Shown: positions 42,574-54,198, counted from the first letter of the stretch. The stretch: 59,931 nucleotides of DNA from Candidatus Pacearchaeota archaeon (GCA_027021195.1 JALUUW010000018.1:1-59931), one strand, 5' to 3'. Notes: generated by a model from the letters alone, not told the origin. Numbers and translations are program-made.

Positions 42574-45246
42574 ATGGGTAATAATGGGGGAAATTACCAT
42601 TCAAAAACAAAAGAGGAGATTTTTGATGAACTTAAAACTTCTGAGAAAGGGCTAACTAACAGGGATGCCGCTGAGAGAATAAGGAGATACGGGCCAAACA
42701 GAATAGTAAAAGAGAAAAGAGCCCCGGAAATAGTAAACTTTCTCAAGCAGCTTAAAAATCCTTTGGTGTATATTCTCTTTGTGGCAATAATTATTTCTTT
42801 TGTTTTTGGGCACCTGATAGATGCTTATGTGATTCTTTCTGTTGTTTTTATTAATGCTGCAGTAGGATTCATTCAAGAGAGAAAGGCTGAGAAGGCCATT
42901 GATGCCCTGAAGAAAATGGTTGTTTCTTATGCAAAAGTCCTGAGGGATGGGCAGGAGATTAAAATTCCTGCAGAAATGCTTGTTCCTGGAGACATTATCT
43001 TTTTGGAGCAGGGAGACAAAATTCCTGCAGATGCGAGGCTCATTGAAGTGAGCGACTTCAGGACACAGGAATCTTCTTTGACTGGAGAGTCTTTTCCTTC
43101 TGAGAAGAATCTTAAGGTTCTTCACGAGTCAACTCCTCTTGCAGACAGGTCAAATATGGTTTTTCATGGCACTTTTGTCGCATCAGGAGAGGCTAAGGCA
43201 GTTGTTGTTGCAACAGCAAAAAATACTGCAATAGGGCAGGTTGCAAAATCAATTCAGCAGATAGTCCAGCCAAAGATGCATTTTAATGAAAAGGTAAATC
43301 TGCTTGCGTTTCAGATGGCGATTTTCGCATCATTAGGAGCCTCTCTCATATTTATAGTGGGATATTTCCTTAACAAAATGGAATTTTTTGAAATATTCTT
43401 ATTCACAATTGCCTCATTAGTGTCTGGAATTCCAGAAGGCCTTCCAGCAGTGCTGATTGTTGTCTTAGCTGTAGGTGCGAGAAGAATGGCAAAGAGAAAT
43501 GCAGTGATCAGGCACCTTCCCGCAGTTGAGACTCTTGGAGTGGCAACAGTCATTGCAACGGACAAAACAGGAACCCTGACAAAAAACTCAATAACTGTTG
43601 AAAAGATAATCACTTTTAATGAGGAGATTGACGTAACTGGAAATGGATGGGAGCCTTTAGGGAGATTTTATAGAAAAGGAAAGCTGATTAATCCAAATAA
43701 AATTCCTTCTCTGAAGAAAGCCCTGATGATTTCCGCACTTTGCAACAAGGGAAACCTGATTAGGAAAAATGGAGAGTATGAGGTTGTTGGAGATCCTACA
43801 GAAGTTGCACTGCTTGTATTGTCAAAAAAAGCAGGAATACACAACAGGGAGATTCAGGAGAAGCTCCTTGAAGATTTTGCCTTTAGCTCTGATTTAAAGT
43901 TCAGGGCAAGTCTTGTACAGGGCAGCAAAAAGCAGCTTTATTCTGTCGGGGCATTTGAGACTATCTTTGAAAAGTCAAAGTATTTTTTGAAAGATGCTAA
44001 AAAGGCGAAGCTTGATGAAAAAGCAAAAAAGGAATTTTTGTCAAAAGCAGAAGGGCTTGCAAAAAAAGGGATGAGAGTTCTTGCTCTTTCATACAGGGAT
44101 TTGCCAAAGCATGTTAATTCTGTTTCTGCAGATCTTGTAAGCAATTTGGTTTTGGTTGGTCTTGTAGGCATGAAAGACCCTCCAAGACATGGAATAAAAA
44201 AAGCCATTGAGAAAGCGAAAAAGGCCGGGATAAGAGTGATTATGAAAACAGGAGACCATAAAGAGACAGCGCTTGCAATTGCAAAAGAAATAGGGCTGGC
44301 TAAGGGAAATGAAAGGGTTCTTACAGAATCAGAGCTTGAGAAAATGTCTTCTCTTGAGTTTAAGGAGGCTGTCAAAGAGGTGAATATCTTTGCAAGAGTA
44401 ACTCCAAAAATGAAGTCAAAGATAATAAAGTATCTGCAGGAACAAGGGGAAATTGTGGCAATGACAGGAGATGGAGTGAATGACGCTCCTGCACTGAAAA
44501 GGGCTGATATAGGAATATCTATGGGAATCATGGGGACAGATGTTGCGAGAGAATCATCTGAGATTGTCCTTGCCGATGATAATTTTTCTTCTATTGTAAA
44601 TGCTATAGAGGAAGGGAGAATTGTTTTCCAAAATATGAGGCAGACAAGTTTCTTCCTGATAACCACAAATGTTGCGGAAGCTGTTACAATTATCTCTTCT
44701 TTGGCAATGGGCTCTCCTCTTCCTATGATCCCTATACAACTGCTTTATCTGAATCTGGTAACAGACACATTCAATGGCGTTGCTTTGGCAATGGAGCCGG
44801 GGCATAATGATGTTTTAAGCCAGCCCCCAAGAGATAGGAAAGAGAAGATACTCAATCAAGAGGTTTTTCTTTTTCTTGTTTTTACTGCAGGGCTGATGGC
44901 TTTAGGGACAATCCCTTTGTTTAACTACTTTCTTCCATATGGAATTGAAAAGGCAAGAACCGCTGCATTTGTTTCAATGTCTATGTTCCAGCTTTTCAAT
45001 GTCCTGAACATGCGCTCTTTAAAAAAATCACTTTTCAAGATCGGATTTTTTTCAAATAAGTGGATAACTATTGGAATTGCCTCTTCGCTTTTAATGATGG
45101 TTGGCGTTATATACCTTCCGTTTACATCCGGAATTTTCCAGTTTGCAAGATTGAGCTTCTGGGAATTTGCAATGATTTGCGTTATAGCATCATCCATTTT
45201 AGTGGTTGGAGAGATATACAAGCTCGTGAGATACAAGGAACTTTAA
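42574..45246 (+). CDS. P-type ATPase, P2 (Ca2+/cation-transporting) type, second paralog
   Basis: ATDKTGTLT, PEGLPAV, TGDGVNDAPALK. Confidence 0.9.
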   Translation: MGNNGGNYHSKTKEEIFDELKTSEKGLTNRDAAERIRRYGPNRIVKEKRAPEIVNFLKQLKNPLVYILFVAIIISFVFGHLIDAYVILSVVFINAAVGFIQERKAEKAIDALKKMVVSYAKVLRDGQEIKIPAEMLVPGDIIFLEQGDKIPADARLIEVSDFRTQESSLTGESFPSEKNLKVLHESTPLADRSNMVFHGTFVASGEAKAVVVATAKNTAIGQVAKSIQQIVQPKMHFNEKVNLLAFQMAIFASLGASLIFIVGYFLNKMEFFEIFLFTIASLVSGIPEGLPAVLIVVLAVGARRMAKRNAVIRHLPAVETLGVATVIATDKTGTLTKNSITVEKIITFNEEIDVTGNGWEPLGRFYRKGKLINPNKIPSLKKALMISALCNKGNLIRKNGEYEVVGDPTEVALLVLSKKAGIHNREIQEKLLEDFAFSSDLKFRASLVQGSKKQLYSVGAFETIFEKSKYFLKDAKKAKLDEKAKKEFLSKAEGLAKKGMRVLALSYRDLPKHVNSVSADLVSNLVLVGLVGMKDPPRHGIKKAIEKAKKAGIRVIMKTGDHKETALAIAKEIGLAKGNERVLTESELEKMSSLEFKEAVKEVNIFARVTPKMKSKIIKYLQEQGEIVAMTGDGVNDAPALKRADIGISMGIMGTDVARESSEIVLADDNFSSIVNAIEEGRIVFQNMRQTSFFLITTNVAEAVTIISSLAMGSPLPMIPIQLLYLNLVTDTFNGVALAMEPGHNDVLSQPPRDRKEKILNQEVFLFLVFTAGLMALGTIPLFNYFLPYGIEKARTAAFVSMSMFQLFNVLNMRSLKKSLFKIGFFSNKWITIGIASSLLMMVGVIYLPFTSGIFQFARLSFWEFAMICVIASSILVVGEIYKLVRYKEL

Positions 45247-45725
45247 GAAAAAGTCTTTACCCTGTTGGCGTTTTCCCTTTTAGAGAGGGAACAATTCTCA
45301 CTTCACTAGATTCTCTGAGAGGTTTTCTTTTTTATGCCTTGATGTTATGGGGGATCTTGTTCCATTTTTCCTCTTTTTTATTTTTTGAGCGTGATGAATT
45401 TCTGAGATTATGGTGAAACAGAGATTTTGCTCAAGGCAGATATGTGTTTCTGCACTGCAAAACCTCTGTTTCTTAAGGGGTCAGATGGTGATTAAAGGTT
45501 TTTATGGAAGAGCATTTGTCTACTCCTCTTTTTTATACCTAATCCAGACAAAACTTCTTTATAAACCGTAAGAAGCAAAGATAAGTACCGGGAATATATA
45601 GAAGTCCTATGTTTTTTAAAGCATTGCTCCTAAGTTTTTTATAGTGCGGCTGAAAAAACAATTACCAAATTCAATATATATTCCCATATATAAAACCTTA
45701 AATAACCAAAAAAAATTGTAGTTTC

Positions 45726-46418
45726 ATGTATTTTCTAACATGGGTCATACAGAATAAGGAATTAGTTAAAGTTGTCTATGCATTAGCAATTGCAATTATT
45801 TGCGCATTTATTGTTATAAAAACAGACAGGCTCTTTAGAATAAGCATGTATAAAGGAATAAGATACTTTAGAAACGCTTTTCTGTTCTACGGCATAGCAA
45901 TAATAATAAGGTATATATTTGGAGCAATCTCTTCTTATAAATTCATAGATATAGGGAATGCAGCAATAAATTTCATGTTCGAATATTTCATGATTATGGG
46001 AGGGTTTTTTCTGCTTTACAGCCTTTTATGGGGAAAGATAGATGACTCTGAAGAAGAACCAGCAAGCTCTCTGTTCAATTCAAAAATCTCCCTATTTTAT
46101 GCAATGGCATTCATAATAGTTCTTTTGGATTACTTATGGAATTCCTATTACTTCCTTTTTTCATCACAGATTATCCTGTTCTTGATTATGTCAATCATAA
46201 GCTTCATGAATTATGTAAAAAAGGGTAAAAACAGCGGATTCCTGAAGCTTTATTTTATTGCAATGCTTTCAGGCTTTACTGCATGGATGCTTAATGCACT
46301 TGCATCTATCTGGCTGAGGTGGAATCAAGGAGTGTTAATAGTTGTTTATATCTTAAATGTGGCAATTTTTTTACTGTTTTTGTATGGAGTTATCAAGGCA
46401 ACAAAAAGAATAAAATAA
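45726..46418 (+). CDS. Multi-pass membrane protein (230 aa)
   Basis: About 7 TM helices. Followed 1 nt later by a wHTH gene. Confidence 0.5.
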   Translation: MYFLTWVIQNKELVKVVYALAIAIICAFIVIKTDRLFRISMYKGIRYFRNAFLFYGIAIIIRYIFGAISSYKFIDIGNAAINFMFEYFMIMGGFFLLYSLLWGKIDDSEEEPASSLFNSKISLFYAMAFIIVLLDYLWNSYYFLFSSQIILFLIMSIISFMNYVKKGKNSGFLKLYFIAMLSGFTAWMLNALASIWLRWNQGVLIVVYILNVAIFLLFLYGVIKATKRIK

Positions 46419-46419
46419 A

Positions 46420-46692
46420 ATGGCGAAGAAAAGGGAAAGGCTGGATGTGATTAGGGATATTCTGAGAGCTGTAAGAGACAATAAGCAGATAAAGCCTACA
46501 AGGCTTTTGTATGCATCCAATCTCTCTCCGCAGATGTTTAAGGATTACATAAATGAACTGATAAGCAAAGGATTCATCAAGCTGGAGGTTGATAAAAAAG
46601 AGAAAAAAGCATTTGTCCTGACGAAAAAAGGCCACGAGTTTCTTCAGGAATACAAAATTATAGAGGATTTTATTGAAAGTTTTGGGCTTTAA
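46420..46692 (+). CDS. Small winged-helix DNA-binding protein (90 aa)
   Basis: ILRAV...KPTRLLYASNLSPQMFKDYINELISKGFI pattern typical of archaeal wHTH proteins. Confidence 0.6.
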   Translation: MAKKRERLDVIRDILRAVRDNKQIKPTRLLYASNLSPQMFKDYINELISKGFIKLEVDKKEKKAFVLTKKGHEFLQEYKIIEDFIESFGL

Positions 46693-46871
46693 ATAAGCCT
46701 GTTGGCATTGCCTTTTTGAATATAGAATTGAATGCACTATTTCCTGCAGAATAAAATAAGCTTTAGTTTCGTTTATCTGGTTTGTGCATAAATATCTTAG
46801 AGTTCTTTTCTTTTTCCATAGCAATCTAGGGAATTAAGCATCTGATTTTCAATACAGAAAAAACAAATCAA

Positions 46872-46896
46872 CAAGCACCAGAAGAAACACACTTAA
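46872..46896. repeat. 23S processing-stem arm (3' flank of the 23S)
   Basis: AAGCACCAGAAGAAACACACTTAAT pairs with 49778-49803 as 8 bp + bulge + 14 bp. Confidence 0.7.
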
Positions 46897-46920
46897 TTTT
46901 TGAGAAGTCCGGAAAATCAA

Positions 46921-49748
<2,828 letters not shown>

Positions 49749-49777
49749 GTTTACGATTTTCTGAATCTTCTAAACAT

Positions 49778-49803
49778 ATTAAGTGGGATTTCTTCTGGTG
49801 CTT
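49778..49803. repeat. 23S processing-stem arm (5' flank of the 23S)
   Basis: ATTAAGTGGGATTTCTTCTGGTGCTT is the inverted partner of 46872-46896. Confidence 0.7.
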
Positions 49804-50004
49804 ATTTCATTGAACATGATGTTCTCAATATGATACAATAAGTTGCTTATTGCACCATCTCTAAATTGAGCATGATTTCTAATGTCAAGGGATTTCTCCT
49901 CTTTGCGGATGATTGAAACTTTGTTTATTGCGATTTTAAGCTTCTTTAAGTTTATTTGGCAAAATATTGTATAATCTCTCTTTTTTGAGAGTTTTTAAAG
50001 GTTT

Positions 50005-50220
50005 TTACCCATATTTTACTTTTATTTCCACCTTGCTTCTTGGATATGCCTGTTTGAATATTTTATCCAATTTGTCTGATAGTACAGGAATATATTCTCT
50101 TTTTCCATCACTGCTCCTTACATATATCCCATCCTCTCCATTTCTCTTTGTGACTTTTATTGCTTTTATTGTCATACCATCCACTATTATCTCTAATCTT
50201 CTTTTTCTGCTTATGACCAT
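50005..50220 (-). CDS. Hypothetical small basic protein (71 aa) inside the 16S-23S spacer
   Basis: ATG ORF with balanced, protein-like composition, on the same strand as the rRNAs. No motif recognised. Confidence 0.4.
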   Translation of the reverse strand: MVISRKRRLEIIVDGMTIKAIKVTKRNGEDGIYVRSSDGKREYIPVLSDKLDKIFKQAYPRSKVEIKVKYG

Positions 50221-50246
50221 CTTCTGTTTCCATTTTGATTTATTTT

Positions 50247-50453
50247 TTATTGGTAATTATTATATTTATTTCCATTATTGTCTTCACTGGAAGTTAAAGC
50301 AAGGGCAGCTCCTGATAAAAAGGATATTCCTGCCCCAATATAAGGAAAGTAATTATTTTTTTCCATTATGCTTTCCATTATTTCACCGATTCCAATGCAG
50401 GCAAACCCTATTATCACTCCTGTAAGTGTAATCTTTTCAAGTGTTGTCGGCAT
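50247..50453 (-). CDS. Hypothetical 2-TM membrane protein (68 aa) inside the 16S-23S spacer
   Basis: Two Gly/Ala/Ile-rich helices. Starts 35 nt downstream of tRNA-Ala and ends 26 nt before the next ORF. Confidence 0.4.
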   Translation of the reverse strand: MPTTLEKITLTGVIIGFACIGIGEIMESIMEKNNYFPYIGAGISFLSGAALALTSSEDNNGNKYNNYQ

Positions 50454-50487
50454 TTTCCAATAAGGTTTTATGGATCCTTTATAGATA

Positions 50488-50611
50488 TGGACCCGCCGCG
50501 AATCGAACGCGGATCTCTTCCGTTCTTGACACGCACCCTTTTTGGAGGTGCGGAACCTTTCTAAGGCTCTGCGTGCAAGGGAAGTATCTTAAGCCATTGG
50601 ACAACGGGCCC
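50488..50611 (-). tRNA. tRNA-Ala (anticodon UGC) with a ~51-nt intron, in the 16S-23S spacer
   Basis: Acceptor GGGCCCG/CGGGTCC with the G3-U70 identity pair, anticodon stem CTTCC/GGAAG with loop CTTGCA-intron, T arm CCGCG-TTCGATT-CGCGG, discriminator A. Confidence 0.8.
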
Positions 50612-50799
50612 TTATGCAGTTGTTTTTCAAAGAGATGTTAAACTTCTCCCTTTTTATCCTCTGTAAATTGAAGATATTTATTTAACCCGTTCCGGCTTTT
50701 TAAATTTTTTCTGTTAATCTTCAATATGTTGCTTGTTAATTTAAGCTGATGTAATATAAGTTTGCTGATTAACAGCAATCTGTTATGCAACTAAAAAGC

Positions 50800-50811
50800 A
50801 TGCAGAAGCAA
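50800..50811. repeat. 16S processing-stem arm (3' flank)
   Basis: ATGCAGAAGCAA is the inverted partner of TTGCTTCTGCAT at 52431-52442. Imperfect pairing extends outward on both sides. Confidence 0.65.
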
Positions 50812-50844
50812 CCTCGCTGATCATCATTCTAATTATAATTTTAT

Positions 50845-52296
50845 AGGAGGTAATCCAACTGCAGGTTCCCCTACAGTTACCTTGTGACGACTTAACCTAC
50901 CTTGTCTAGCCAAGGTTCTCCCCCGAAGGGTTTCACCATAACTAAACTCGGTTGGTTTGACGGGCAGTGTGTGCAAGAGACAGTGACGTATTCACCGTTC
51001 GCTGATGACAAACGATTACTACGGATTCCAGCGTCACGAGGCTGAGTTGCAAACCTCGATCTGGACTGAGATGGACTTTAAGAGATTAGCTTCTCCTTTC
51101 AGAGTCGCGTCCCGTTGTATCCACCATTGACGCGCGCGTGTTGCCCAGGGGATTCGGGCTGTACTCACCTAACGTAGCCCACGCTTTCATCCCTGTTACC
51201 AGGGCAATCTGCATATAGTACGCGTAGTAAATATGCATGTGGGTCTTGCCTGTTACCTGATTTAACAGGTCACCTCACGGCACAGGCTGACGTCGGCCAT
51301 GCAACTCCTCTCAGCGTGTCAGGTAAGCCCTTCAGACTGACCTTCATTCTGCTGTCGCTCCTGGTGAGGTTCACGGTGTAGAATCTAATTGAACCGCACG
51401 CGTCACCCGTTGTAGTGTCTCCCCGCCAATTCCTTTAAGTTTCGGCCTTGCGACTATACTTCCCAGGTAGCACACTCTTCGGCTTCCCTTCAGCACTAAT
51501 ACCTCTCGAGGAGGCACTAATGTTTAGTGTGCAGTGTTTACTGCCAGGACTACACGGGTATCTAATCCGTTTTGCGCCCCTGGCCTTCATCCCTTACTGT
51601 CAGAACTGTCCTCGTAGGATGCCTTCGCTATTGTGAGTCCGTCCAAGATTAAAACATTTTACCGTTACTTTGAACGTACTTCCTACGCCTTCCAGTCTCT
51701 AGCTTTGCAGTACCTCTTGCTCGCCCGACACTTGAGATGCCAGATTTCACAAGAGACTTACAAAGCAAGCTACGGATGTTTTAGACCCAATAAAGATGGC
51801 TGCGACTTGGACCGCTAGTATTACCGCGGCGGCTGGCACTAGTCTTACCCGGTCCTTATTCGCCAAACTTTTTACATTTGGCAAAAGTCCTTCAATTGAA
51901 GGACACTCTGGCTCAATCTGTCACGCTTTCGCGCATTGCAGAATATTCCTAACTGCTGCACCCCGTAGGGCTGGGAATAGTGTCTCAGATTCCCTCTCAG
52001 GGCCTCTCCGCTAAGAGCCCTTACGGATCACAGGCTTGGTAGTCCATTACACCACCAACAACCTAATCCGCCGCAGCCCCATCCTTAGGCGCGAGTTTCA
52101 GAGATAAATCTTTCCAGGGTATATCTCCTATCAGGCATTAGCCTCAGTTTCCCGAGGTTATTCCTGACCTAAGGGTAGGTTAGCTACGTGTTACTGAGCA
52201 GTTCGCCTTCCCCCAATTCCGAAGAACTAAGGAAAAAACTTGCATGTCTAAGCGCAAACCAGATAGCCGCAGCCGCCAGCAGGATCAACTGGATTT
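50845..52296 (-). rRNA. rrs: 16S ribosomal RNA (ends +/- a few nt)
   Basis: The 5' end reads AATCCAGTTGATCCTGCTGGCGG and GTGCCAGCCGCCGCGGTAATAC is internal. The 3' end reads AAGTCGTCACAAGGTA...GAACCTGCAGTTGGATTACCTCCT. Confidence 0.9.
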
Positions 52297-52430
52297 AAAG
52301 AATTTTCATAGATTGTAAGTATCTTTCTCAGACACTCTCAATCTCAATTCCGCATTTTCCTCTATAAGATAAGGAAAACACTTCACACATCTCCTACTAT
52401 TGGCTTATTATTAGAACTACAACTAGATGA

Positions 52431-52442
52431 TTGCTTCTGCAT
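52431..52442. repeat. 16S processing-stem arm (5' flank)
   Basis: See 50800-50811. Confidence 0.65.
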
Positions 52443-52524
52443 ACATCATACTTTAATTTCAATAAAGATATGGTTTACTCTCATTAAAGTACTCATCTTA
52501 GTTAGAAATACAAAAAATGTCCCC

Positions 52525-52534
52525 TTTATAAATA
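52525..52534 (-). promoter_or_regulatory. Candidate rRNA operon TATA box (TTTATAAATA, nearly palindromic)
   Basis: It is the only strong TATA-like element upstream of the 16S leader/processing stem, about 230 nt from the mature 5' end. Confidence 0.35.
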
Positions 52535-52686
52535 TTTCTGTCAATAAAGAGCCATTATTTACTCTTTACCTTTGTGTAATAAATGATTTGAAACATATAA
52601 TCTTTTGCCAGTGTCTTTAGAGATTGAGTGCATTAGCCCTTTCTTTTCTCTATAAGCTTAAATATTATCAATTGCTTGTTCTAATT

Positions 52687-53064
52687 ATGCCAATCTTTGT
52701 CATTCATGAACATCATGCAACTCATTTGCATTGGGACTTAAGGCTTGAGATGCAGGGAGTTTTGAAATCATGGGCCTTGCCAAAAGAGCCTGCAAAATCT
52801 AAAAACATCAAACGCCTGGCAATTCAGACAGAAGACCATGATTTATCCTATAAAGATTTTGAAGGAACAATTCCTGAAGGAATGTATGGTGCAGGAAAAG
52901 TAAAGATTTGGGATAAAGGAACATACATTTTAGATAGCAAAAAATCTGAAAAAATCGTCTTTCATCTTCATGGGAAAAAACTGAAAGGAAAATATGTCTT
53001 GCTGAAAACAAAATTTGGAAAAGAAAGAAATAAATGGAAATATTGGCTGTTTTTCAGGGCGTAA
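52687..53064 (+). CDS. Stand-alone LigD-type 3'-phosphoesterase domain protein (125 aa from the first ATG)
   Basis: FVIHEHHATHLHWDLRLE..GVLKSWALPKEP...EDHDLSYKDFEGTIPEGMYGAGKV closely follows the LigD PE domain pattern. Confidence 0.7.
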   Translation: MPIFVIHEHHATHLHWDLRLEMQGVLKSWALPKEPAKSKNIKRLAIQTEDHDLSYKDFEGTIPEGMYGAGKVKIWDKGTYILDSKKSEKIVFHLHGKKLKGKYVLLKTKFGKERNKWKYWLFFRA

Positions 53065-53082
53065 TTTTTTCACTTTCCTTTT

Positions 53083-53985
53083 TTATTCCCCAATCTCTCC
53101 TGTCCACCATTCAAGGTCAGGAATATTTTCTGTTGGAAGCCCTCTTGCCCTGCAGTATCCTCTTGCCAGAAGATAAAAAATAACTCCAAGACTCTTTGCG
53201 CTTTTATTGTTCCCAATTATAACTTGGTCAGCTCCTTTAGAGAAATTGTTTGTGCAGCATATCATTAAAACTTTTTTATTTACTTTTAAAGTGTCATTTA
53301 ATGCATTTTTATCAAGCCATGCATCAGTTATTATTGTCAGCTCATTTTCAAAGAAATCCGGAAGTTTTGTGTTCGTAAGAATTCCTGCAGGATATTTTTT
53401 TGTGAATGTCCTTATTCCTGTGAGGCGTGAAAACATGTCAGCCACTCTCCATCCTGCCTCTCTTTTGCATACAAGGATAACATCTTCTGGCTTGAATTTT
53501 GACAGAAATTCTATTCCTTCTTTCAGCTTTTCATCAATCAGGTCTGTATTGAATATTGCCAGCCCGTCAGCTCTTCTTCTGTAAACAAAAGGCCTCATGT
53601 CAGGTGTTACTGCCCTTGTTCCAAGATATATTCCTGACTTAACATACTCTTCAAGAGGAATGAGCATGTCTGTTCTCTTTTTTATTTTGACTTCTTTTTT
53701 AAGCTCTTCAGTTGTTGGTTCAGCAGACACCTTCTCCTTAAGCTTTTTTGCTTTTTCTAAAAGCTCTTTCTTTTTCTTTTCCAGCTCTTCTGCTTTTTTT
53801 GCCTTTTCTTCTGCAGCTTTCATCAAATCTTTTTTAGGAACTTTTCCAAGCTCTTTTTCAGATTTCTGAACTTCTGCTTCTGCAGTCTTCTCTAACTTTT
53901 TTTCCTTTTTTTCTTTGGATTCTTTTTTTGAAGCAGCTTTTTTCTCTTTTTCTTCTTCAGAGCTTTTGCTTTTTTCTTTAGTCAT
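53083..53985 (-). CDS. rps2: Ribosomal protein uS2 with a ~105-aa Lys/Glu-rich N-terminal extension
   Basis: The core LIPLEEYVKSGIYLGTRAVTPDMRPFVYRRRADGL matches archaeal uS2. The extension frame is open, and a TATA-like box lies about 25 nt upstream of the ATG at 53985. Confidence 0.85.
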   Translation of the reverse strand: MTKEKSKSSEEEKEKKAASKKESKEKKEKKLEKTAEAEVQKSEKELGKVPKKDLMKAAEEKAKKAEELEKKKKELLEKAKKLKEKVSAEPTTEELKKEVKIKKRTDMLIPLEEYVKSGIYLGTRAVTPDMRPFVYRRRADGLAIFNTDLIDEKLKEGIEFLSKFKPEDVILVCKREAGWRVADMFSRLTGIRTFTKKYPAGILTNTKLPDFFENELTIITDAWLDKNALNDTLKVNKKVLMICCTNNFSKGADQVIIGNNKSAKSLGVIFYLLARGYCRARGLPTENIPDLEWWTGEIGE

Positions 53986-54198
53986 GAGAAATCAGAGAAA
54001 AATATGTTTAAAAAGGTTGCGTAGACTCTTGACTCTCATGCAATCTTATGACACTCTTTAAATAGAAATCTTGTCCATGGCATTTATGGAAAAAGAGGCA
54101 TTAGGCAGGGAGAAATATAAAGAGATAATCCTTGCAATATAGGAATTCACTGACTGTCTTGACGGAATAAGCAAACTGGAAAAAGAATTGTCAGATAA

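Follow-up and report, generated by a model that had tools for sequence, protein, structure and literature searches.

In the textbook archaeal ribosomal RNA (rRNA) operon, the spacer between the 16S and 23S genes carries only a tRNA. Elsewhere, archaeal rRNA introns carry LAGLIDADG homing-endonuclease open reading frames (ORFs), such as I-DmoI and I-PorI, bacterial 23S intervening sequences carry the S23p ORF (Pfam PF05635), and the thrU-tyrU-glyT-thrT-tufB operon of Escherichia coli is a tRNA-linked mRNA. The locus described here is the 16S–23S spacer of a Candidatus Pacearchaeota archaeon, contained in a 59,931-nucleotide (nt) stretch of DNA (GCA_027021195.1, JALUUW010000018.1; hereafter the window, with positions counted from its first letter), which is contig C18 of a 0.80-Mb genome assembly of 79 contigs that is ~90% complete. 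Between the tRNA-Ala gene and the 23S gene, this spacer holds two short co-directional ORFs, ORF1 and ORF2. The favoured reading of the pair, held with some reserve, is that both are real small accessory genes in a variable slot reaching from the tRNA-Ala 3' end to a conserved 23S leader.

Several described systems resemble this locus in part. Brewer et al. ('Unlinked rRNA genes are widespread among Bacteria and Archaea', 10.1101/705046) define rRNA genes as unlinked when the 16S–23S spacer exceeds 1500 nt, and coding spacers are not discussed there. Like unlinked rRNA genes, 16S and 23S are separated here by predicted protein-coding DNA, and every RNA gene seems to be served by a promoter-like element of its own. 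However, gene order, orientation and both processing helices are kept here, and the inserted genes are tiny and co-directional, one of them coming from a family found almost only in spacers. An earlier note on this DNA had called protein genes at this place a departure from the canonical architecture, which holds, though the 1094-nt spacer counts as 'linked' by the 1500-nt criterion (10.1101/705046). As in the E. coli tufB operon, the message would lie directly downstream of a tRNA on the same strand, so that tRNA 3' processing could define the mRNA 5' end; in contrast, the present pair lies inside an rRNA gene cluster of an organism with leaderless mRNAs. The intron-borne endonuclease and S23p ORFs likewise encode small proteins within rRNA transcription units and vary among relatives, whereas ORF1 and ORF2 are situated in the spacer, outside the rRNA genes and their helices, without intron-like flanks, and match none of LAGLIDADG, GIY-YIG, HNH, PD-(D/E)XK or PF05635 in Pfam and NCBIfam at E values up to 10. 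A literature search found no description of small genes in archaeal 16S–23S spacers; the present analysis adds a survey of 67 spacers across the archaeal family and defines a protein family located in the spacer.

ORF2 and its protein family

ORF2 (50005–50220, minus strand, as are all features below unless stated otherwise) starts with ATG and encodes 71 amino acids (aa) with an isoelectric point (pI) of 10.0. It is marked out by the ORF listing, a family profile search and codon usage, and is very probably a gene. Neither ORF2 nor ORF1 has a relative among 5.8 billion clustered proteins (word search) or among 40 relatives (tblastn), a Pfam or NCBIfam family at E values up to 10, or a PHROGs or PADLOC match at E values up to 0.1, where short orphan proteins can escape such libraries. 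Within a set of 811 translated segments, ORF2 groups with the spacer ORFs of two other genomes, G014 and G258 (phmmer E 6.9e-4, the value against the L010 ORF, and 2.7e-6), and BLASTP gives 2e-5. A profile combining ORF2 with two spacer ORFs of other genera, searched against 1.84 billion representative proteins, recovers only its own three members, two large repeat proteins and three further small proteins, 59, 74 and 67 aa long (E 3.6e-11, 4.2e-4 and 9.2e-4). A seven-member hidden Markov model (HMM) adds the 90-aa spacer ORF of G089 (L032) at E 7e-6 and then converges. The resulting unnamed family (alignment A5) contains eight members of 59–90 aa, which are similar over their full length, with the motifs L-E-I-x-V-D-G towards the N terminus and K-Y-x-G-K-x-V-x-L-K-Y towards the C terminus. 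The two repeat proteins, which contain PA14 and LDL-receptor-B repeats and came from the A2-profile search, were rejected as artefacts of summing over repeats.

In every member with readable context (the present locus, G014, G258, G089, L090–L092 and L094–L096), the order is 16S, tRNA-Ala, ORF and 23S; the P0008 contig is too short to show its context. When 401 genomes of the same archaeal family are searched in six frames, the HMM gives four spacer matches and one weak partial match outside spacers, and as far as searched the ORF2 family appears small, rare and almost confined to rRNA spacers. The pI of the six members computed is 9.6–10.0, a weak feature given the median pI of 9.1 for the whole proteome. 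Intact ORF2 frames are present in at least six diverged lineages, and this comparison of spacers among relatives, which the earlier note had proposed as a check, supports the coding of ORF2. The only unsaturated pair in the family has a ratio of non-synonymous to synonymous substitution rates (dN/dS) of 0.39. Furthermore, DNA contigs of two vent metagenomes were compared. One of 184 nt, which comes from a different vent study, matches 50097–50280, the ORF1–ORF2 junction, at 94.6% identity; three of the four differences listed inside ORF2 are synonymous third positions by manual codon mapping. A relative in the second vent study is without the ORF cassette. The single non-spacer match is a 123-aa predicted secreted lipoprotein outside any rRNA locus (L218:2222-2593, on G243:C21), in which a 40-residue stretch resembles the beta-hairpin core of the ORF2 family (HMM E 5e-5 per genome); this resemblance could be chance or a hint at the origin of the family.

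AlphaFold2 run on ORF2 with the family alignment gives a mean predicted local distance difference test (pLDDT) score of 79.9 and the element order b-b-b-b-a-b, by which the product is modelled, fairly confidently, as a basic beta4-alpha-beta protein. Fold searches with this model yield no convincing match: the best Foldseek hit in PDB has E 0.13, the best wide VIA-align hit Z 3.9 and the best BFVD hit E 0.036, and the template modelling score in the Atlas structure search is at most 0.54. The uL24-like rows obtained for ORF2 were rejected as meaningless, with a root-mean-square deviation of ~14 Å. Of the HMM and structure searches suggested earlier, the former uncovered the ORF2 family, and the latter left a fairly confident model that matches no known fold. 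A second spacer-ORF family (A3, five genera) is predicted at pLDDT 67 to share this order of elements and their spacing, and a common origin of A5 and A3, judged by the N-terminal L-E-I motif and the predicted secondary structure, is plausible. As for function, the ORF2 product might be a dispensable RNA- or ribosome-associated protein whose dosage follows rRNA and tRNA transcription, a role offered as a tentative guess.

A conserved motif, AAAATGGAAAC..GAAGATG (50218–50236), ends in the start codon of ORF2. It precedes ORF2-like ORFs in 10 distinct spacers (11 loci, L094 and L095 being the same), which include, besides the present one, L010, L030, L031, L032, L037, L047, L050, L066 and L094, and it occurs once in the 0.8-Mb genome. 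The motif also contains an upstream ATG (50231–50233 in the window). This ATG lies 7, 13 or 16 nt ahead of the ORF start, never in frame with it, and begins an overlapping frame of 21–41 codons. In a scan of genome contigs with its 19 specified bases, most matches are chance ones in bacteria; of the archaeal matches checked, two are known loci and a third (L167) was rejected as a chance match outside a spacer. The TGGAAA motif was considered as a ribosome-binding site and dropped, as the spacer ORFs have no extra complementarity to the 16S 3' end (p = 0.45).

Coding signal in the spacer

The DNA downstream of 16S was taken from ~80 genomes of the same family, in which the spacers range from 186 to 1745 nt and 67 are fully resolved. 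On the sense strand, the longest ORF beats shuffled sequence at p <= 0.05 in 30 of the 67 and at p <= 0.01 in 18, against 3 and 1, respectively, in the same test of the antisense strand. ORFs of at least 57 aa are found in 36 of 64 spacers, nearly all past the tRNA and most starting 11–91 nt after it, and they split into several sequence families. Outside the ORF2 family, spacer-ORF pairs have dN/dS values of 0.26–0.9, which point to weak-to-moderate purifying selection on these families.

In the window itself, codon usage was scored as log-odds built from 461 long ORFs of the same genome, with stop-free, composition-matched random sequences as the null. ORF1 scores 0.267 against a null of -0.007 +/- 0.108, a value reached by none of 300 nulls, and ORF2 scores 0.402 against 0.176 +/- 0.096, reached by 2 of 300 (0.7%); for reference, real 70-codon windows have a mean of 0.222 +/- 0.128. 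Both ORFs therefore exceed their nulls in codon usage. Two further frames overlap them, a 41-aa ORF (50108–50233) opening at the upstream ATG and an antisense ORF of 152 aa on the plus strand (49967–50425), which is longer than either. Both were rejected as genes, with codon scores that sit on their nulls, and are read as shadows of the sense genes. Own-spacer coding is thus well above chance because of codon usage and the comparative data, not because of ORF length, and the proposal that protein genes sit in this spacer has strong support in the case of ORF2 and moderate support in that of ORF1.

ORF1 (50247–50453) is an acidic 68-aa ORF with an ATG start and two hydrophobic helices, whose product is predicted to be a two-helix membrane protein. 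The hydrophobic segments begin at about residues 4 and 38, positions that match those of the spacer ORF of L015. Moreover, at least three other genera have spacer ORFs with two transmembrane helices (two-TM ORFs), each alongside a soluble small ORF, and one pair of them from other genera has a dN/dS of 0.26. Homology between ORF1 and these ORFs was rejected as non-significant. ORF1 is probably a real gene, though less surely so than ORF2, by virtue of its codon usage and the analogy with other spacers, not of homology.

Several observations weigh against reading both ORFs as genes. With dinucleotide shuffles, the longest sense ORF of the spacer, at 71 aa, exceeds the shuffle mean of 45 aa at p = 0.055, so on length alone the own-spacer ORFs are borderline. 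Against an HMM of the other two-TM spacer ORFs, ORF1 reaches 5.0 bits, which 57 of 3000 shuffles also reach, and the reversed ORF1 sequence outscores ORF1 itself. Profile–profile links of A5 with A3 and other families cover the N-terminal L-E-I motif only (15–27 columns, hhalign E 0.005–0.05). The dN/dS values of the spacer ORFs are high compared with those of housekeeping genes. In addition, 28 of the 64 related spacers have no ORF of 57 aa or more, and because of this the spacer genes appear dispensable.

These points bear on two alternatives. According to the first, neither ORF codes for protein, and the frames are open by chance in a transcribed, A-rich spacer, as the length statistic and the long antisense ORF would allow. 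For ORF2 this is largely refuted, and for the pair it is very improbable: the ORF2 family is conserved, with E down to 3.6e-11 in a whole-library search, its frames stay intact in at least six diverged lineages, codon usage is gene-like, the ORF2 fold model is confident, and sense and antisense ORFs are asymmetric across the 67 spacers. According to the second, which is unlikely but far less so, only ORF2 is a gene and ORF1, which lies between it and the tRNA, is an incidentally hydrophobic chance frame. No counterpart of ORF1 was found in the 5.8 billion clustered proteins or the 40 relatives, it is not significantly similar to the two-TM ORFs of other spacers, the promoter-like signal before it is weak, its Atlas model is poor (pLDDT 0.62), and its Atlas feature matches, at <=0.81, are at chance level. 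On the other hand, the codon usage of ORF1 resembles that of real genes and scores above all 300 nulls, its two hydrophobic segments are clean and agree in position with those of the L015 ORF, and two-TM ORFs recur in spacers of at least three other genera, one pair of them at dN/dS 0.26. The reading of both ORFs as genes is retained on these grounds.

Promoter-like boxes and the 23S leader

Upstream of 429 long ORFs of the genome, A is enriched at -32, TTT at -29 to -27 and A-rich sequence from -26 to -22, and neither G enrichment near -8 nor another Shine–Dalgarno signal is seen there. By this pattern, the genes of the genome are essentially leaderless, with a TATA element ~26 nt ahead of the ATG. 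A promoter profile was built from these upstream regions of the genome's own genes, with the 99.9th percentile of random positions as threshold. In the 6.2-kb rRNA locus, four places lie above the threshold, before 16S, tRNA-Ala, ORF2 and 23S. The box with B recognition element (BRE) and TATA character before 16S occupies 52523–52540 (7.01 bits, implied start ~52503), and that 64 nt upstream of tRNA-Ala occupies 50695–50712 (7.29 bits, implied start ~50675). A third promoter-like box lies within the 3' end of ORF1 (50255–50272, 5.95 bits, implied start ~50235). The fourth, CCTTTAAAAAC, stands at the head of the 23S leader and overlaps the stop codon of ORF2 (49990–50007, 7.66 bits, implied start ~49970); the TATA-like box that had been pointed out after ORF2 is real and is the best match in the locus to the genome's own promoter profile. 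Ahead of ORF1, a weak TATA-like element, CTATAAAG (50477–50484), follows directly after the tRNA and is centred ~27 nt before the ORF1 ATG, and a clearer TATA box abuts the tRNA end in several relatives.

The boxes at the tRNA and at 23S are shared with relatives. A BRE/TATA-like box precedes tRNA-Ala in 53 of 64 family spacers (L006–L088), and in 37 spacers (manual count) the implied start lies 1–6 nt before the first base of the tRNA, which in those 37 would be made almost without a 5' leader. A nucleotide alignment of 18 spacers delimits a conserved 23S leader block (49751–49975), which includes the 5' arm of the 23S helix. The 23S box TTTAAAAAC is kept in at least seven genera, in spacers with or without ORFs, and heads a leader block of ~250 nt; because of this conservation, any uncoupling of 23S would be a family trait and not an effect of insertion. 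The earlier note had posed two possibilities, an mRNA released from the pre-rRNA or a 23S gene uncoupled by an insertion; this insertion falls away as the cause of any uncoupling, and the promoter-like boxes shift the balance between them. Across the spacer ORFs, start codons outscore other spacer ATGs on the promoter profile (p = 3.7e-4), and complementarity to the anti-Shine–Dalgarno sequence is not enriched at them relative to other spacer ATGs (p = 0.45).

These features are consistent with a row of closely packed transcription units, which is what the 16S–tRNA-Ala–23S 'operon' of this family looks like. ORF1 would be transcribed from the weak TATA element abutting the tRNA end and ORF2 from the box in the 3' end of ORF1, with additional read-through from the tRNA-Ala and 16S promoters. 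One or more leaderless or short-leader mRNAs would result, like those of almost all genes of the genome, and would end before or at the 23S leader. Expression of the pair from its own promoters or with a short leader, in preference to carving from the pre-rRNA, has about even chances. Three points count on the other side. By chance, ~6 positions above the threshold are expected in 6.2 kb with this weak profile, because of which the case for the boxes of the locus rests mainly on their position and conservation. The ORF1 box CTATAAAG scores 2.2 bits, a value equalled by 20% of random sites. Meanwhile, the best promoter match near ORF2 aims at the out-of-frame upstream ATG and not at the ORF2 ATG.

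Alternatively, the genes may be real and their mRNA carved from a single 16S–tRNA–ORFs–23S precursor, the spacer boxes being unused as promoters. Here a tRNase Z cut at the tRNA-Ala 3' end would make the mRNA 5' end, with a 34-nt leader before ORF1, and cleavage of the 23S helix, or decay, would make the 3' end. Such a route, which is less probable than expression from the spacer boxes, would fit the canonical order and the two long processing helices that are kept, the start of ORF1 35 nt past the tRNA (11–91 nt for the ORFs of most relatives), the weakness of the ORF1 box, and the terminator-like scan, which finds no convincing terminator after 16S or the tRNA. Against it, the promoter-like boxes that precede tRNA-Ala and 23S are kept from genus to genus, and translation of a leadered, processed mRNA is hard to see because the genes of this genome are leaderless, with no Shine–Dalgarno signal, and anti-Shine–Dalgarno complementarity is not enriched at the spacer ORFs (p = 0.45). 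Expression from the spacer boxes is accordingly kept as the working view, at the strength given above.

Within the leader (49751–50007, compared with the last 270 nt of 18 related spacers), the order is the TTTAAAAAC box, a AAAATCGTAA element, a variable hairpin and then TCAATGAAATAAGCA, which begins the processing helix. The hairpin is flanked by TGGTGC and ATCA..TTGAGAAC. In this genome alone, a hairpin CTCTC-A6-GAGAG followed by a weak T-run is seen at 49976–49991; the terminator-like scan called this palindrome on the plus strand and made no terminator call on the minus strand.

Proposed gene turnover in the post-tRNA slot

The most economical reading of the locus is a partly decoupled rRNA gene cluster, in which the slot after the tRNA tolerates, expresses and turns over small genes, with one family retained in several genera. 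Across the family, this post-tRNA stretch appears to hold, repeatedly, short, fast-evolving and lineage-restricted genes. Between L081:1646-2139 and L097:1155-1648, two neighbouring spacer genes are very unequally diverged: the synonymous divergence (dS) of the two-TM gene is 0.69, whereas the 80-aa gene next to it differs by 3 non-synonymous changes and 0 synonymous ones. Such mosaic divergence suggests recombination or recent replacement within the spacer.

Since tRNA genes are a classic integration target, the ORF pair might instead be the cargo of a mobile or integrative element that landed beside tRNA-Ala and is unrelated to rRNA biology. The presence, absence and content of the slot vary among close relatives, and neighbouring spacer genes diverge as a mosaic in one lineage, both of which would suit such an element. 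However, the pair is flanked neither by a direct repeat of the tRNA 3' end (att-like) nor by terminal inverted repeats, and Pfam, NCBIfam, PHROGs and PADLOC give no match to an integrase, transposase or viral family. Outside rRNA spacers, the ORF2 family has a single weak partial match in the 401 genomes searched, and the motif before ORF2 is conserved in place. Mobile cargo is therefore an improbable explanation. The spacer ORF listing likewise holds no integrase-like ORF, and ORF1 and ORF2 match no defence-system genes in PADLOC.

A broader and rather speculative extension of the accessory-gene reading treats the stretch from tRNA-Ala to the 23S leader, which is A-rich, heavily transcribed and flanked by promoters, as a nursery for new genes, at least one lineage of which has been kept as a spacer-resident superfamily. 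In this scenario, short ORFs would keep appearing in the stretch, by origin on the spot or by arrival from elsewhere, and would be expressed immediately and diverge quickly. The kept lineage would be the beta4-alpha-beta proteins with the L-E-I motif, which may bring together A5, A3 and other families, and this superfamily would perhaps act on the ribosome or its precursors.

Linkage surveys regard any spacer below 1500 nt as part of a normal operon. In a large DPANN family, over half of the spacers 'linked' in this sense have small co-directional predicted protein genes at one defined slot. Annotation pipelines that mask rRNA operons will miss such genes, and differences in spacer length, which serve for typing in these lineages, follow gene content. 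If the expression proposed here is true, the locus would be a natural system for the coexistence of mRNA with rRNA processing in archaea, an intermediate stage toward unlinked rRNA genes, and a tractable site for following how small genes arise and turn over.

Layout of the locus and further observations

The 16S rRNA gene lies at 50845–52295 (Rfam RF01959, 1320 bits) and the 23S rRNA gene at 46919–49750 (Rfam RF02540, 2280 bits), which leaves a 16S–23S spacer of 1094 nt (49751–50844). With introns allowed, ARAGORN calls a tRNA-Ala(UGC) with a 51-nt intron at 50488–50611 (spacer positions 234–357), and in its plain mode, with no introns allowed, it calls no tRNA in the spacer; a G3:U70 pair is read directly off the sequence. 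The ORF1 ATG lies 35 nt past the end of this tRNA, and ORF2 begins 26 nt past the ORF1 stop. These coordinates confirm the spacer of ~1.1 kb with tRNA-Ala and two co-directional ATG ORFs that had been proposed. An independent assembly of the source sample spans 23S, spacer and 16S with zero differences, so the arrangement is not a chimera.

The 3' arm of the 16S processing helix (50789–50811, inverted repeat I3) pairs with 52431–52453, and the cofold of the 16S flanks has an energy of -71.8 kcal/mol. The 5' arm of the 23S processing helix, which as previously proposed lies downstream of both ORFs, has an 18-nt core at 49789–49806 that is 94% complementary to 46870–46887 (inverted repeat I5); in full extent, 49755–49806 pairs with 46870–46918, with a cofold of -54.5 kcal/mol. 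Thus, ORF1 and ORF2 are both between, and outside, the 16S and 23S processing helices, and the canonical archaeal features of gene order, orientation, spacer tRNA-Ala and a long helix flanking each rRNA are kept. The canonical operon would also yield one primary transcript from a lone upstream promoter, against which the promoter-like boxes ahead of tRNA-Ala and 23S speak, as sequence matches.

A 5S rRNA gene was not found in 44000–54000. Among the 67 resolved spacers, tRNA-Ala(TGC) is called in all bar one odd ARAGORN call (L070), with an intron in a quarter. ARAGORN places the tRNA-Ala opposite to the rRNA strand in L044, L054 and L077, where an orientation artefact is possible, and calls an extra intron-bearing tRNA-Gly(CCC) ahead of tRNA-Ala in L058, which may also be an artefact. 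In several family members, a 250-nt query from the 16S 3' end matches in two pieces 800–950 nt apart (G063:C20:71460-72565, and G232, G160, G389, G386, G107, G347 and G395), a split that implies a large intron-like insertion at one fixed site in the 16S 3' domain. Just past the 23S 3' helix, 22 nt on the plus strand (46774–46795, inverted repeat I1) are 82% identical to the 16S 5' region at 52244–52265 on the opposite strand.

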